Below are positions 1 to 10,877 of a stretch of DNA of 59,377 nucleotides, in pieces. How positions within the stretch are numbered: position 1 is the stretch's first letter; the number at the start of each line of letters is the position of its first letter. This stretch comes from a virus (Duplodnaviria > Caudoviricetes): positions 1 to 59,377 of the IMG/VR virus record IMGVR_UViG_3300044949_001207; one strand, given 5' to 3'. The notes under the pieces are model-generated. The model was not told where the DNA came from. It made no database searches and was given only the letters and a program-made list of their open reading frames with translations. The position numbers and the translations under genes were made by a program.

Positions 1-123
1 CACCTGATGCGGTGCATTGAGGCGGGCGGGGACTATGTCCGTGATGTGTCGCTGCCTGTGGGCGACCCGATCTACACCGGCCACCGATCCTGAGGCTTCG
101 CGGATTTCCGGCAACACACAGTG
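1..123. repeat. Terminal duplication A, identical to 58947..59069
   Basis: Base-by-base identity of 1..123 with 58947..59069; indicates circular assembly. Confidence 0.95.
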
Positions 124-198
124 AGGAGACAACCCATGGCAACGCCATTGCCAACACACATCACGACATGCCCAGACTTCAAGACCGACCACCTCCGC
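100..198. repeat. Terminal duplication B, identical to 59279..59377 (99 bp)
   Basis: Base-by-base identity; 99-bp length fits an assembler k-mer overlap. Confidence 0.95.
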
Positions 199-486
199 CC
201 ACATGAGCGGGTCATCGCTGAGGCTGTACTGCGAGCGCTGCCTGCGGAAGCAACCGGCGGCGGGTGCCAGGCCTTCTGGTCGCCCGACAAGTGGAAGCAA
301 CGGGGCGAGCACTACGGCACGAACAGCCTGCTCATCCTGGTGCATGACGGCGGCGACCTGGCCCCCCTTTGCAACCCCGACTACGGCATGCCGCTGTGTA
401 TGCGGGCGCTGGAGGCGGAACTGCGGGACATGGGTCTGTTCGTGGAGTCATGCACCTGCTGGTACTCCGCCGTCTACCTGGCCTGA
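136..486 (+). CDS. Hypothetical phage protein (GGGCxAF...HDGG motif)
   Basis: GAGGAG SD after repeat; stop codon abuts next repeat at 487. Confidence 0.75.
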   Translation: MATPLPTHITTCPDFKTDHLRPHERVIAEAVLRALPAEATGGGCQAFWSPDKWKQRGEHYGTNSLLILVHDGGDLAPLCNPDYGMPLCMRALEAELRDMGLFVESCTCWYSAVYLA

Positions 487-624
487 GCGGATTTCCGGCA
501 ACCAACCATTGACCTGACCGGACACTACAGGGTGGGGCCACCCGGCCCGCCGACCAGGTGCGAAACGGGTGGCATTCAATACACACAGGCGGATTTCCGG
601 CAACCACTAACGGGAGGACGAGTG

Positions 625-822
625 ATGGACTGCTGCATCTGTTCAAAGCCTATCGCCCCGGTCGGGGATTGGACGCAGGGCAATGACGCATGGCCGGTGG
701 CCGATGGCCGGTGCTGCAACCAGTGCGACATGACGGTGGTGGTGCAGGCCCGACTTATGGAGTGGGCGGCGGAGCGGAGCAAGCGGATTTCCGGCAACTC
801 AAAGCGGGAGGCAACCACATGA
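625..822 (+). CDS. Small Cys-rich putative Zn-binding protein
   Basis: CCIC...GNDAWPVADGRCCNQC; GGAGG SD; reads through repeat as RISGN. Confidence 0.7.
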   Translation: MDCCICSKPIAPVGDWTQGNDAWPVADGRCCNQCDMTVVVQARLMEWAAERSKRISGNSKREATT

Positions 823-1100
823 GCGACATCCTCGCAGACATTGAACGGGTGCTGGATCGATACCACAGATCGACGCCACTGCTGGTTCACGGCACCCTGC
901 TGGATGCAAGGCAGGAGATCAAGGCACTGATGACTGCGGTCGAGAACCTGACGGTCGAGCGGAACCTCCTGTCGCGGGCGCTTGAAGACCTGGCCGGGAG
1001 GTGCGACGGGCCGGATGGCGTGCTGAAAAACGGGGAGAACATACCCACATACCAGGCGCATGCGGCGCTGGGTCACTTCGATGACGGGGAGGATCGCTGA
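819..1100 (+). CDS. Hypothetical coiled-coil protein
   Basis: GGGAGG SD after repeat at 783; MSDILADIERVL. Confidence 0.7.
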   Translation: MSDILADIERVLDRYHRSTPLLVHGTLLDARQEIKALMTAVENLTVERNLLSRALEDLAGRCDGPDGVLKNGENIPTYQAHAALGHFDDGEDR

Positions 1101-1246
1101 TGAGCGTCGGCAGGATCGAAGTCCCATTCGTGGACGGTGTCGAGAGGCTGGCTGAGCTGCTGCTGTCGCTGGCACAGGCGGGGTTCACCTTCGAGGTGCG
1201 GTGCCACGACCAGATGGATGTGTGGGTGGTGTCGCTGAAGTACTGA
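1100..1246 (+). CDS. 48-aa hypothetical protein (below ORF-track cutoff)
   Basis: TGATG coupling; MSVGRIEVPFVDG...VVSLKY; stop abuts repeat at 1247. Confidence 0.65.
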   Translation: MSVGRIEVPFVDGVERLAELLLSLAQAGFTFEVRCHDQMDVWVVSLKY

Positions 1247-8413: not shown

Positions 8414-8709
8414 TGCGGACAGCCAACACTCTTGTTGTGTCGAGCGGATGGGTGGGCCGCAAGGGGCCGCTTGGAAAGAACGGCAGCTGGACGCACCCGG
8501 AGTTTCCTGGGGTGACAGTCAAGCACTGCGGTCACCAGACCGCGCTGCGGCCCTACTACATACCAGGGAGCAAGCTGCCGGGGGGCGTGGCCTATTACAC
8601 ATTCCGCACCGTCAAGCAGGCACAGTGGTGGGCTGAGCGCGGCGGGCATTTGCTGGAAGACCAGGACGAGGCAGACCAGTTGTATCGGGAGATGATCGGT
8701 CGTGAATAA
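8413..8709 (+). CDS. Hypothetical protein (HCGHxTALRPYY motif)
   Basis: TGATG coupling; 98 aa. Confidence 0.65.
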   Translation: MRTANTLVVSSGWVGRKGPLGKNGSWTHPEFPGVTVKHCGHQTALRPYYIPGSKLPGGVAYYTFRTVKQAQWWAERGGHLLEDQDEADQLYREMIGRE

Positions 8710-9565
8710 GCGCGTCGTATTCGGACTACCACTGAACCCTGCCCCGCTGCTCGAACAGCTCAGCGGTCAGTCGTTCTGCCTGAGCTACTACCACAGGCAC
8801 CGGCTGGGCAAGCAGCTCGACCAGGCGATTGACCTGGTCGGGGATGACGGGATTCTCCTGCTCGACAACGGTGCATTCACCGCCTGGCAGAAGGGGGAGA
8901 CACTGGCCTGGGAGCACTGGGAGAAGTTCGCGGAGTGGGCGGCTGGCATCATGGCCCGCTGCCCCCAGGCTGTCGCCGTGACCCCCGATGTGATCGGCGG
9001 GACGGAGCAGCAGAATGCCGAGCTGATGATCGACTTCATGTGCTGTGGGATTGTCGAAACGGACAGGTGCATGCCGGTGTGGCACATGCACGAAAGCCTC
9101 GACCACCTCCGCTACCTCACCGACTACGGCAAGTATTTGGCTATCGGCAGCAGCGGCAAGTACGCCAAGGTCGGTACGCCCAAGTGGCACCGGAGAATCG
9201 GTGAGGCGTTGCGGGCTATCAACCGGGCGACGATCCGCGTCGGTCTCATGCGGCCCTGGCTGCACATGATGCGGGCGCAATCGGAGATGCATGCCTACCC
9301 ATTCGACAGCTGCGACTCCTGCAATGTCGCTGTCAACCATGGCCGGTGGCGGCGGTCTCATCCAGGCGACAGGCATGTGGCCCGCATGGCGCAGCCCATC
9401 CTCGACAGGGTGGCACTGTCGTGTGACGGGGTCGAGCGCAAGCCGCACCTGTCCCCAGCCGGTGAGGTCAGGGAGTGTGCCGTGTGGCAGGGCAGGATCG
9501 CCGCACTGGAGGAACGGTTCGAGTCGCTGCGGGGGCGTGACCCGCAGCATTCAATGGTGGCGTAG
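8702..9565 (+). CDS. tRNA-guanine transglycosylase-like (DpdA/TGT-like) protein
   Basis: LLDNGAF, PDVIGG, PVWH, IGSSG, LHMMR and FDSCDS motifs match TGT-fold phage proteins. Confidence 0.6.
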   Translation: MNKRVVFGLPLNPAPLLEQLSGQSFCLSYYHRHRLGKQLDQAIDLVGDDGILLLDNGAFTAWQKGETLAWEHWEKFAEWAAGIMARCPQAVAVTPDVIGGTEQQNAELMIDFMCCGIVETDRCMPVWHMHESLDHLRYLTDYGKYLAIGSSGKYAKVGTPKWHRRIGEALRAINRATIRVGLMRPWLHMMRAQSEMHAYPFDSCDSCNVAVNHGRWRRSHPGDRHVARMAQPILDRVALSCDGVERKPHLSPAGEVRECAVWQGRIAALEERFESLRGRDPQHSMVA

Positions 9566-9587
9566 ATTTCCGGCAACGGGGGACACT

Positions 9588-9671
9588 ATGAGTTTGTCTG
9601 AGTGGATCGGCATTAGCGTCGGTGCCGTAACGATTTTCTGTGTGCTTACTGGGGTGGGGTTCCGCCGATGA
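9588..9671 (+). CDS. 27-aa single-TM micropeptide
   Basis: GGGGGA SD after last repeat; MSLSEWIGISVGAVTIFCVLTGVGFRR; ATGA overlap with next gene. Confidence 0.45.
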   Translation: MSLSEWIGISVGAVTIFCVLTGVGFRR

Positions 9672-10111
9672 CTGAGCAAGACGAGCGGTCTATCTATATC
9701 GACCACCTCCGCCCGTATGCAGATGCGGCGTGTGCAAAGGTCGAGACCATGCTGCAGGACATAACCACATGCGACCCGATGTACATTGTGTTTACGGAGA
9801 AGGAATCCGAGGCGCTGATGGACGCCTTGCGTGGAGCATTTCATGTGGACTGCAGCAAGGTGTTTACGCAACGCGGCGGGCTGAGGTACGTCAAGACACA
9901 CCTAACCACAACCCGCGATACGGAACTCCTGGCTGGCATCCTGTTCTATGATTCACTGGCTGCGTTTCAAGAGGGCGAGACATTCGTGCTCCCGCTCAGC
10001 AGGGCATGGACGCTGCCGATTGCATTGCTCAATCCCGGCATGGCACTGCGTGGATACAACAGGCTTGTAGTTCCCGACCTGCACATCTACGAGGGTGACG
10101 AAGATGTCTGA
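9668..10111 (+). CDS. Hypothetical protein
   Basis: 147-aa ORF coupled to neighbours. Confidence 0.6.
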   Translation: MTEQDERSIYIDHLRPYADAACAKVETMLQDITTCDPMYIVFTEKESEALMDALRGAFHVDCSKVFTQRGGLRYVKTHLTTTRDTELLAGILFYDSLAAFQEGETFVLPLSRAWTLPIALLNPGMALRGYNRLVVPDLHIYEGDEDV

Positions 10112-10877
10112 CAGGCAGGCTATCTGCTACGGATACGGCAGGCATTCCACCAACAAGCAGGAGCTGACCAGGGAGGTGCAGGAGTTCCGCACCTACGACC
10201 ACTGGGAGCGGAACCTCAAGGATAAGGGGATCGTCTGGGGTGGGTTCTTCTATGACCCAGCAACCTCTGCCCGCATCCCGTTCAGTGAGCGGCAGCATGG
10301 GCGGATACTGCATGCCGTCGCCCAGCCAGGCGACCACATCCTGGTCACCAAGCTCGACCGTCCATTCCGCTCCCTGCGTGACGGCATCGTCAGCATGGAG
10401 CAGTGGTCGGATCGCGGCGTCATCTTCCACAGCCTCGACCTCCAGGTGGACACCAGCACCCCGCTGGGGAAGTTCTTCCGGACGATCCTGCTGGCAGTTG
10501 CTGAGCTGGAGCGGGAGTTCACCAGGGAAAGAACCAGGGAGACCGTCGAGCTGCGGAAGCGGGCGGGCCAGCCGTACTCCACTGGCTGTCCTGTCGGGTG
10601 GCGGATCGTCGGTGAGGCACCGCATCGCCGCTACCGGACGGACGAGGACGAGCGGGCGCTGGTGGATGAGATGGCTCGACTCCGCGATGACGGTGCGTCC
10701 TACGATGACCTGGCCCTGTGGTCGATGAAGCAGCAGTCGCTGCCGTGCAAACGCACATTCCCGACGCGCGGCCAGACCAAGTGGGCAATCAACGCGCGGC
10801 GGGCTGGCTACCCCAAGATCGCGAACTACAAGGTCTTCAATCGGATGGTGTCGCGCGGCGAGATCAAGGTGCGTTAG
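10104..10877 (+). CDS. Serine recombinase (resolvase/invertase family)
   Basis: YGYGRHST catalytic-Ser motif; GDHILVTKLDRPFRS; VDTSTPLGK...AVAELERE..RERT. Confidence 0.92.
   Translation: MSDRQAICYGYGRHSTNKQELTREVQEFRTYDHWERNLKDKGIVWGGFFYDPATSARIPFSERQHGRILHAVAQPGDHILVTKLDRPFRSLRDGIVSMEQWSDRGVIFHSLDLQVDTSTPLGKFFRTILLAVAELEREFTRERTRETVELRKRAGQPYSTGCPVGWRIVGEAPHRRYRTDEDERALVDEMARLRDDGASYDDLALWSMKQQSLPCKRTFPTRGQTKWAINARRAGYPKIANYKVFNRMVSRGEIKVR

Follow-up and report, generated by a model that had tools for sequence, protein, structure and literature searches.

Integron sites are imperfect palindromes that a tyrosine integrase recombines as folded single strands, and integron cassettes lack promoters. 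Among T4-type phages, recombination between PeSL copies is described as giving rise to insertions, deletions and replacements among closely related strains (PMC2839356). Stoperators, the 20-30 asymmetric sites that are oriented with transcription and bound by a monomeric repressor, are described as differing between heteroimmune phages (PMC6550527, PMC9283540) and as occurring across the entire genome (PMC6550527). Here we compare these and related systems with a repeat-punctuated gene array in a phage from lake water.

The window, by which we mean the whole 59,377-nt stretch of phage DNA analyzed, contains 20 exact copies of the 16-mer GCGGATTTCCGGCAAC, all on the + strand (0 in 100 shuffles). 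The initial annotation had counted 25, a figure reached on this strand only when up to two mismatches are allowed; the five inexact copies (one or two mismatches) begin at 1501, 9562, 57353, 57505 and 57742, and all 25 contain the 11-nt core TTTCCGGCAAC. Because window positions 100-198 are identical to 59279-59377, the sequence forms a circle of 59,179 bp with 24 copies, and a count on both strands bore out the claim of 24 co-oriented copies per circle. These span 57353..59278 and 100..9577, about 11.4 kb of the + strand accessory arm, in agreement with the ~11.5 kb first proposed. As had also been claimed, the remaining ~47 kb holds no full copy: elsewhere there are only two near matches, both on the − strand, one at 17476 with 3 mismatches and one at 55492 with 2; chance alone predicts 0.77 matches at up to 3 mismatches. 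Conservation takes the form of a sharp-edged 16-nt block. The adjoining 7-nt linkers resemble one another but have drifted, whereas the 16-mer is invariant, and SNPs in run X11 at 782 and 799 directly flank the copy at 783-798 (among the 40 rows listed of 344). Exact copies include the following.

589 to 604, + strand: exact repeat copy
1911 to 1926, + strand: exact repeat copy
3263 to 3278, + strand: exact repeat copy
3944 to 3959, + strand: exact repeat copy
6635 to 6650, + strand: exact repeat copy

The unit grammar proposed earlier (stop codon, repeat, linker, SD, ORF) holds. Stop codons abut the repeat at the sites originally cited (484-486/487, 1244-1246/1247, 4183-4185 and 58693-58695/58696), and most SD-led copies follow one pattern: the repeat, a modal linker of exactly 7 nt, GGGAGG or GGAGG, 5-11 nt and a start codon. 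Two kinds of exception, which the initial annotation did not emphasize, are six copies through which the upstream ORF reads (783, 5479, 6635, 7467, 59279 and 9562) and seven with no SD-led ORF behind them (57353, 57416, 57458, 57665, 487, 1247 and one leader-type copy).

58696 to 58711, + strand: exact copy, abutted by the GP88 stop codon
487 to 502, + strand: exact copy with no ORF behind it
783 to 798, + strand: exact copy within the 3' end of ORF 622-822
2284 to 2299, + strand: exact copy ahead of the DUF932 gene at 2339-3220
4185 to 4200, + strand: exact copy, its first base overlapped by a TAG stop
9562 to 9577, + strand: final copy, degenerate with 2 mismatches, whose altered bases make up the stop codon of the DpdA-like gene at 8702-9565

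Other elements of the array and of the adjoining genome are listed below.

57179 to 57216, + strand: AT-rich block with a 16-bp palindrome
57353 to 57757, + strand: leader cluster of six copies (57353, 57416, 57458, 57505, 57665 and 57742)
57781 to 58695, + strand: GP88-family gene, the first large gene of the array (PF17338, E 1.5e-31)
10104 to 10877, + strand: small serine recombinase that closes the array (Resolvase N-terminal domain, E 7e-24)
10874 to 11395, − strand: sigma-70-family (ECF-sized) protein, 173 aa
19700 to 20365, − strand: ERF-family annealing protein
20367 to 21287, − strand: PD-(D/E)XK exonuclease
21392 to 22306, + strand: tyrosine integrase

Apart from the repeats, the leader cluster contains only a 29-aa ORF (57564-57653) and a short T-arm-like hairpin element (~57692-57735). 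The AT-rich block occupies the stretch from which the − strand genes (first start at 57090) and the leader cluster diverge; since it is conserved in phages carrying different repeats, it may be a promoter, an origin or a genome-end element. Family matches among the array genes are limited to GP88, DUF932, a DpdA-like protein and the resolvase, which lends little support to the suggestion that the cargo serves host takeover or anti-defence, and a comparison with 78 related loci gave no homolog for 21 of the 35 array ORFs. The tyrosine integrase indicates a temperate phage, and the virion module is podophage-like and distantly HMO-2011-like.

Two clean repeat-to-repeat deletions directly support the use of the repeat in crossover. 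The two ends of the record differ by one 233-nt unit (window 1-123 matches 58947-59069, and 100-198 matches 59279-59377), with the joint in a 24-nt shared stretch made up of the repeat and the 8 bases after it; a contig of X5 matches 1-902 without differences and therefore carries the short form. In run X11, one strain is missing the 254-nt unit from 1247 to 1501, and here the joint lies inside the 16-mer, with 16 shared letters.

59046 to 59061, + strand: exact copy, left edge of the 233-nt unit missing from the record start
59279 to 59294, + strand: exact copy, right edge of that unit (window 100-115 on the circle)
100 to 115, + strand: copy at the deletion-form junction (window 1-123 = 58947-59069)
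1247 to 1262, + strand: exact copy, left end of the unit deleted in X11
1501 to 1516, + strand: copy with a single mismatch, right boundary of the unit that X11 lacks
5148 to 5163, + strand: exact copy, its first base marking the end of an X11 replacement
5479 to 5494, + strand: exact copy; X11 joint 1 nt upstream
7467 to 7482, + strand: exact copy; X11 joint at its last base
3768 to 3785, + strand: 18-nt SD-start junction repeat (second copy at 3967-3984)

Some joints in X11 lie in the repeat, flush with it or 1 nt from it, and others lie in SD-start repeats: a 199-nt deletion runs between the 18-nt copies at 3768 and 3967, and another joint lies in an 8-nt repeat (7054/7294). Joints in X11 number 8 in the 10.9-kb array and 1 in a 9-kb control stretch (11-20 kb). 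Since the other deletions use SD-start repeats, the 16-mer is one of several crossover points for general short-homology recombination, with no dedicated site-specific system; the initial annotation's claim that crossovers occur at the repeat is supported. The ERF protein and the PD-(D/E)XK exonuclease are the likely machinery. The serine recombinase is probably not the reader of the repeat: its identity is 65% in a relative without such repeats and 62% in one with a different repeat, and it is present in 24 related loci, most of them repeat-less.

Close relatives (83-88% identity in TerL and 68-78% in GP88) retain the leader cluster and the stop-motif-linker-SD layout, in the order leader cluster, GP88-family gene and then one copy ahead of each SD, yet every one of them carries its own 16-mer. 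An information-content block of ~16 nt recurs in three lineages, namely this phage (W), L027 (n = 13 copies) and L028 (n = 12), and the W and L027 motifs have only a CGGCAA half in common. A 16-mer that differs by lineage within an unchanged layout is the pattern expected of a site co-evolving with a specific reader; together with the sharp 16-nt block, it provides indirect support for the earlier proposal of a regulatory site. Most of the more distant relatives either are punctuated by hairpin- or terminator-like elements or lack repeats altogether, so not every member of the family has the system. None of the three lineage motifs forms a stable hairpin (that of W allows just 4 bp with a 2-nt loop), and the small CGGA-TT-TCCG dyad of the W motif is absent from motifs B and C.

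We tentatively propose that the 16-mer is a stoperator-like binding site for a putative phage-specific regulator, a reading to which we give slightly less than even weight. A lineage-specific factor would read the 16-mer, and we infer that it does so at the DNA level, most likely at a stoperator-type operator. The phage-encoded regulator, presumably a repressor, would occupy all six leader copies as well as the one that precedes almost every cassette, and from there would close or gate the GP88-led accessory operon to rightward transcription, for instance in a lysogen, a setting proposed because of the phage's integrase. Repeat, A/C-rich linker and SD would constitute a portable unit that has spread by copying between genes. 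Being identical, the copies also act as substrates for short-homology recombination that deletes or swaps cassettes, probably through ERF and the exonuclease. Pfam returned no HTH from the 82 ORFs or from six-frame scans, a search in which L5 gp71 itself is barely detected (E 0.008), and no protein in the window is similar to L5 gp71 or IronMan gp73. Neither the sigma-like protein nor the serine recombinase changes with the motif; the HTH and sigma-2 regions of the former are nearly invariant among phages with motif A, motif C or no motif.

It is possible, though unlikely, that the 16-mer is instead a phage-specific promoter or its core, in which case transcription of every cassette would begin shortly before a brief, unstructured leader and its SD, and the arm would open with six promoters in tandem. 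The reader would then be an unrecognized phage RNA polymerase, or the host polymerase with a lineage-specific factor. A sharp, high-information block at a modal 7 nt ahead of the SD suits a promoter, although this modal distance is also compatible with an RNA signal, and copies also precede non-coding units (487 and 1247) and make up the tandem leader. Lineage-specific motifs that have their 3' half in common are reminiscent of T7-group promoter families. Across 14 kb, no sigma-70-like promoters were found and terminator-like sites were at chance level, a result that also counts in favor of the operator reading. The phage encodes a sigma-family protein, and a polymerase may hide in the 1133-aa and 1951-aa proteins, which carry no family assignment. 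However, Pfam and PHROGs identified no phage RNA polymerase family in the 82 ORFs, the 880-aa protein looks kinase-like and not polymerase-like, and the leader copies lack a conserved -10-like element at a fixed distance. The near invariance of the sigma-like protein whatever the motif also argues against this reading, and a promoter requiring a virion or late factor would fit a temperate phage poorly.

A signal at the RNA level seems improbable. It would be a linear 16-nt site on early mRNA, at which a lineage-specific RNA-binding protein, nuclease or small RNA processes the polycistronic transcript or controls translation of each cistron. The copies are co-oriented with transcription, tightly coupled to the SD, with an unstructured A/C-rich linker after each, in a layout like that described for cluster K start-associated sequences (PMC3203893), and, counting G-U pairs, 15 of the 16 motif positions could pair with either of two + strand sites (17476 and 55492). 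Yet the leader copies and 487 have no SD or ORF behind them, a stable hairpin is formed by 0 of 3 motifs, an Rfam search gave no matches, and the complement of motif C in L033 and L028 is only the opposite strand of the copies themselves. We consider it decidedly improbable that the repeat has no reader and is a boundary or linker kept uniform by gene conversion and retained since recombination there spares genes. Deletion endpoints do fall in the repeats and in other boundary repeats, lineages differ arbitrarily in their motif, and ERF and an exonuclease are encoded, but gene conversion predicts longer, ragged tracts, whereas identity here stops abruptly at 16 nt, in a block of about that length in all three lineages, with a drifted linker alongside and SNPs abutting it; nor is it obvious what six tandem copies would link in a leader free of genes. 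An integron-like platform, in which the adjacent serine recombinase inserts and excises circular cassettes by site-specific recombination at the 16-mer, is highly improbable. An intact resolvase-family gene with a catalytic serine motif closes the array, the motif contains a small dyad and the deletions remove exact units, but recombinase divergence is not raised where the motif differs, the gene is found mostly in repeat-less loci, motifs B and C lack the dyad, and the use of SD-start repeats in X11 points to homology and not to a site.

The array shares with integron attC/attI arrays a one-directional series of small, unrelated, repeat-bounded cassettes with a recombinase gene at one end, but its sites are identical linear 16-mers, its recombinase, a serine-type enzyme, does not vary with the motif, and other short repeats serve as crossover points too. 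As in T4-type PeSL cassettes, small ORFan genes of a hyperplastic region are flanked by repeated units and recombination between copies alters close strains, as described in PMC2839356; a PeSL, however, is a sigma-70-like early promoter plus a terminator stem-loop, whereas the unit here is a bare 16-mer with no promoter-like site found and terminator-like sites at chance level. The 22-bp repeats of T1 and Citrobacter phage Stevie are likewise described as 16-20 asymmetric, mostly intergenic sites oriented with transcription (PMC4319613), but these are lytic siphophages with an unrelated repeat sequence and give no mechanistic guidance. Cluster K SAS/ESAS, as described in PMC3203893, resemble the array in being asymmetric, single-orientation repeats that are found only in the non-structural half of the genome and lie ahead of unrelated genes, just upstream of start codons; the SAS includes the SD and lies 3-7 bp from the start codon, whereas here motif and SD are distinct elements and seven copies are followed by no ORF.

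Stoperators provide the closest parallel to the operator reading that we favor. The site of this phage is 16 nt rather than 13, its copies are limited to one 11.4-kb arm rather than spread genome-wide, no gp71-like repressor is detectable, no copy could be shown to lie over a promoter, and the virion module is podophage-like. Motifs that we computed de novo from L5, Bxb1 and IronMan are co-oriented, lie between stop codon and SD and include leader copies; those of L5 and Bxb1 have one half in common (CTTGACA) and differ in the other. IronMan gene 89 is a GP88-family homolog of the array's first gene (33% identity, E 3e-27), a motif copy abuts its stop codon, and further copies are spread through the same operon. 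L5 gp88 gave no blastp match to the GP88 protein of the window, and the GP88 link to cluster A comes from IronMan and 238 other Mycobacterium phage records. In both systems, about two dozen asymmetric, near-identical sites are co-oriented with transcription in short stop-to-SD gaps, with extra copies in the early-operon leader; the consensus varies between related phages while one half is common; and a GP88-family gene lies inside the punctuated operon of a temperate phage. The initial annotation discounted stoperators on the grounds of their different letters; in architecture, however, the array closely matches cluster A early operons, including the GP88-family gene.

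The array of 16-nt repeats is real and lies far above chance. Counting on both strands recovered the 25 copies (24 per circle) that the initial annotation had described, 20 of them exact and 5 with one or two mismatches, and the exact 16-mer had zero matches in 100 shuffles. The single orientation reported there also held: 25 of 25 copies lie on the + strand, as do all array genes. Absence from the rest of the window had been claimed as well, and the other ~47 kb contains just two weak - strand matches (17476 and 55492), at the level of chance; the chance expectation for 16-mer matches at three or fewer mismatches is 0.77. 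No second repeat family was found in the remaining ~46 kb of the window. An exact-motif scan of IMG/VR gave single copies in 26 contigs, which we took as chance. The record is an entire virus record of 59,377 bases (G+C 60-64%), and its circle measures 59,179 bp, since positions 100-198 equal 59279-59377.

Features of the repeat array and its surroundings
57353..9577 (+), across the circle junction: accessory arm carrying the repeat array
57353..57757 (+): leader, a cluster of six copies
57781..58695 (+): first array gene, GP88 family (PF17338)
59062-59294 (+): 233-nt unit absent from the record start, carrying a 74-aa ORF (59079-59303)
10874-11395 (-): gene for a 173-aa protein
52960-55602 (-): gene for an 880-aa protein

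The conserved block spans 16 nt, with an 11-nt core that is invariant in 25 of 25 window copies, and is asymmetric apart from a small internal 4+4 dyad. The proposed grammar of stop codon, repeat, linker, SD and small ORFs held, with exceptions: several copies directly adjoin a stop codon, but in six cases the upstream ORF reads through the repeat, in two different frames. Most SD-led copies consist of the repeat, exactly 7 nt, GGGAGG or GGAGG, 5-11 nt and a start codon. Copy-to-copy units range from 42 to 2095 nt, with between 0 and 5 ORFs in each. Seven copies lack a following ORF, the six leader copies occupy 405 nt in which the sole ORF encodes 29 aa, and the last copy (9562) is degenerate, its two changes coming from a stop codon.

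Three features point to a sequence-specific reader of the 16-mer and argue against mere homogenization by gene conversion. The information profile jumps at the start of the ~16-nt block and drops just as sharply at its end. The 7-nt linkers are drifted variants of each other, with the 16-mer invariant and the SD retained. Finally, in the X11 strain, a variant from metagenome run X11 that diverges from the window by ~2% (among the 28 of 231 pieces listed), base changes at 782 and 799 directly flank the copy at 783-798 (among the 40 of 344 base differences listed).

The initial annotation had further proposed that the repeats double as crossover points, and two deletions, one at the record ends and one in the X11 strain, indeed join repeat to repeat. 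Positions 1-123 equal 58947-59069, so that the record start represents a shorter form without the 233-nt unit; the joint falls within a 24-nt stretch common to both sides, comprising the repeat and its 8 following bases. Contigs from the source run (X1) end at 123 (= 59069) and start at 100 (= 59279), and we infer that these ends mark the branch between the two forms. A contig from run X5 covers 1-902 with zero differences, indicating that the short form is present in another study. In run X11, a contig skips from 1247 to 1502 with 16 shared letters, removing exactly one unit; the unit at 1263-1500 is absent from the X11 strain and is therefore dispensable in nature. Other X11 joints are flush with repeat edges (5148, 5478 and 7482, among the joints listed) or fall in different boundary repeats, namely an 18-nt SD-start repeat (3768/3967) and an 8-nt one (7054/7294). 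This strain has 8 joints in the 10.9-kb array versus 1 in a 9-kb control stretch (among the 15 of 19 joints listed); joints in runs X3 and X5 with sides of 24-46 letters were left uncounted as unreliable. The sole variable spot of the 11-20 kb control is 14455-15025, where the X11 strain has 517 other letters for 569 nt and where X5 and X3 contigs break.

Among the gene products of the phage are an ERF-family annealing protein and a PD-(D/E)XK exonuclease. The joints fit exchange through short homologies where gene boundaries are conserved, as the available text of PMC2839356 describes for T4-type PeSLs, and not a dedicated site-specific system; the crossover use of the repeats is a by-product of copy identity. 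This population evidence for cassette turnover in the lineage is unusually direct, with repeat-mediated loss from an ORFan-rich accessory region caught in natural populations.

The phage was found, whole or partial, in lake-water and freshwater metagenome runs of 22 studies; no RNA run was among those listed. Neither megablast of 1-11000 nor tblastn of one structural protein identified a near cultured relative, and TerL matches are limited to 22-27% and come from Arthrobacter, Roseobacter CRP, HMO-2011 and Pelagibacter phages. A GTDB scan with GP88 gave four loci, three MAG fragments and a Rhodopirellula locus (44%), none of which assigns a host.

A homolog of the first array gene is present in five IMG/VR contigs, two of which keep the backbone (TerL 88% and 83%; major capsid protein 85% and 83%). 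Both place four or five tandem copies of a repeat before GP88, then one copy between stop codon and SD for each of the genes that follow in succession. The 16-mer itself is particular to each relative: L027 has 13 copies of its own motif, L028 has 12 copies of another, and L033 carries the L028 motif. The lake phage, L027 and L028/L033 thus present three differing 16-mers in the same layout, those of the lake phage and L027 overlapping only in a CGGCAA half. Gene content is collinear yet mosaic, and 21 of the 35 array ORFs have no tblastn match in 78 related loci. Farther relatives carry G+C-rich hairpins, terminator-like elements or longer tandem units instead of a high-copy 16-mer. In two of them (L030 9900-15400 and L095, reverse strand), the arm is punctuated by a G+C-rich hairpin, a T-rich stretch and then an SD. 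Another repeat style occupies the same place in two other metagenome contigs with a GP88 gene, L044 (69-263 and 1394-1460) and L046 (426-492 and 1583-1649), where tandem units of ~51 nt lie on both sides of the GP88 gene.

Several other elements of the arm drew our attention. Upstream of the leader, an AT-rich block (57179-57216) whose end forms a perfect 16-bp palindrome is kept in the window, L027 and L028 despite their differing repeats; it may represent a promoter, an origin or a genome-end element. Within the leader, the 29-aa ORF (57564-57653) and a hairpin whose loop resembles a tRNA T-arm (~57692-57735) both have recognizable counterparts at the equivalent position of L028; ARAGORN made no tRNA call for this hairpin, which folds no better than shuffles. 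A stretch of ~50 nt (527-578) in the unit that follows copy 487 and has no ORF matches other short contigs in X1, X3, X5 and X11, shows raised summed depth (in X1, 138 vs 40) and has 1-nt indels at 553-555; it looks like an element common to other genomes of the same lakes. The product of the array gene at 8702-9565 is DpdA-like, with a match to the PHROG family for queuine tRNA-ribosyltransferase (E 6.5e-34), and suggests 7-deazaguanine modification of phage DNA. The last, degenerate copy is separated from the recombinase by a 147-aa acidic ORF (9668-10111) without a homolog in the 78 related loci; L033 has an unlike ORF of comparable size in its place.

The best-supported reading, which we hold tentatively, is that the repeats form a stoperator-like operator set in a GP88-led accessory operon, where they would serve a putative lineage-specific regulator. 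Because the phage encodes a tyrosine integrase, a repressor is expected. Pfam and PHROGs detected no HTH regulator among the 82 ORFs, three HTH or sigma models (including Sigma70_r4_2) run against all six frames gave nothing, and blastp found no similarity in the window to the repressors L5 gp71 or IronMan gp73 of cluster A mycobacteriophages. L5 gp71 itself scores just E 0.008 in Pfam, so an unrelated or divergent repressor could escape detection. A 78-aa protein adjoining the switch region has no PDB relatives. A less likely but still serious rival is that the 16-mer is a phage-specific promoter. Phage RNA-polymerase promoter sets of the T7 or N4 type belong to phages with their own RNA polymerase. 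Pfam and PHROGs found none among the 82 ORFs of this one, but its 1133-aa and 1951-aa proteins gave no assignable fold and might conceal one. The 173-aa protein, missed by Pfam, has a sigma-2-like N-terminal domain: in a model of moderate quality (pLDDT 66) with a badly modelled C-terminal half, it aligns to a SigE sigma-2 domain with a Z of 9.2 and an rmsd of 2.7 Å over 77 residues, and sigma factors account for 50 of 50 among the fold matches listed. It also has a region-4-like HTH by eye and is 62-79% conserved in relatives. On the basis of this domain and HTH, the phage probably redirects host RNA polymerase. As the reader of the 16-mer, however, the sigma-like protein was rejected; its presumed DNA-reading helices are near-invariant across phages with the window motif, phages with the L028/L033 motif and repeat-free phages, and hence cannot specify a variable 16-mer.

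Less probable still, though a rival to be taken seriously, is that the 16-mer acts as an RNA signal. Scans for tRNAs and Rfam structured elements found none, and the folds of 503-588 and 57681-57741 are no better than shuffles (z -1.3 and -1.4). An RNA-guide idea was discarded: + strand complements of the motif occur only at 17476 and 55492, with none in the array or leader and no equivalent in L033 or L028. At these - strand near-copies (17476-17491 and 55492-55507), the + strand could pair with motif RNA at 15 of 16 positions with G-U pairs; one lies in a 295-nt non-coding gap from the helicase gene to the next gene and the other in codons 32-37 of the 880-aa gene, and both may well be chance. 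The boldest reading, to which we give very little credence, casts the repeats as address labels, by which a lineage-specific protein or RNA reader would both switch the accessory arm and direct cassette capture and excision, with the adjacent serine recombinase or an unrecognized enzyme catalyzing exchange. If true, this would be a phage counterpart of the integron that gains new specificities by label swap. The serine recombinase was rejected as the reader: it occurs in 24 related loci, most without repeats, and its identity to the homolog in a motif-C phage (L028/L033 type; 62%) and in a repeat-free phage (65%) shows no extra divergence. Among the backbone proteins, the 880-aa one has diverged by far the most (38% and 27% identity vs 61-88% for its neighbors), its L028 version being just 602 aa. 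It was dismissed as a polymerase: its neighbors in the Atlas structure database are protein kinases, a similarity that, at TM below 0.5, is a lead only. The three lineage-specific 16-mers offer a clean handle on finding a candidate reader and could serve as orthogonal, compact regulatory parts.

The array differs from several known systems. PeSL units combine a strong sigma-70-like promoter with a terminator stem-loop, whereas the array has 0 promoter-like sites, and 1-12500 holds 6 terminator-like sites vs 5.7 expected; the two repeat-to-repeat deletions do correspond to the PeSL trait of indels between close strains by unit recombination. Integrons pair the tyrosine integrase IntI and attI with structured, imperfectly palindromic attC sites; the lake phage has a serine-type recombinase and identical linear 16-mers, and the motifs of its relatives are without dyads. 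The start-associated sequence of cluster K phages includes the SD, and its distance to the start codon is 3-7 bp, unlike the present motif, which ends 7 nt before a separate SD.

The stoperator-like reading draws on a closer comparison. In the available text of PMC6550527 and PMC9283540, stoperators are 20-30 asymmetric sites, oriented with transcription, where a monomeric repressor binds and stops elongation, with a consensus that differs among heteroimmune phages. We determined the most frequent k-mers in the right arms of the cluster A mycobacteriophages L5, Bxb1 and IronMan. Each has a 13-nt motif co-oriented with transcription, located after a stop codon and 1-10 nt ahead of the next SD, with additional copies in the early-operon leader. 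The earlier impression that the lake-phage repeat does not resemble stoperators does not extend to the architecture: the stop-motif-SD and leader layout is common to all four phages. Like stoperators (~13-16 bp, asymmetric, near-identical, 20-30 copies), the lake-phage repeats number 24 per circle, all follow the direction of transcription, and occupy short stop-SD gaps next to the SD as well as an early-operon leader; the three 16-mers of the lake phage, L027 and L028/L033 would match the variation in consensus between related phages. Stoperators are, however, spread over the genome in both arms, whereas the present copies are confined to one. In a stoperator system, at least one copy is also a true operator on the early lytic promoter, and the phage's own cognate two-domain repressor confers immunity. 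Together with the failure to find a gp71-like protein and of any copy to overlap a recognizable promoter, the confinement to one arm weighs against membership; the promoter scan of 56500-59377 covered the sigma-70-like type and found none.

IronMan has a counterpart of the first array gene in its GP88-family gene 89, a homolog at 33% identity (E 3e-27); the stop codon of gene 89 directly adjoins a motif copy, and further copies lie elsewhere in that operon. GP88 homologs occur near the right end in 238 Mycobacterium phage records, and a homolog is the first gene in HMO-2011, CRP-143 and several Pelagibacter phages; L5 gp88 had no blastp match and is not claimed as a homolog. If the stoperator-like reading is true, such immunity or silencing wiring would not be special to actinobacteriophages and would extend to a widespread phage of lakes that is uncultured and whose virion module is podophage-like, the link being a GP88-led early operon in common. 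L5 and Bxb1 share one motif half and differ in the other, as do the lake phage and L027. According to the available text of the respective reports, asymmetric, co-oriented intergenic repeats are known in L5-type (PMC6550527), cluster K (PMC3203893) and T1-type phages (PMC4319613); the present repeat is therefore a new form of a familiar type, in an uncultured lineage of lake phages.
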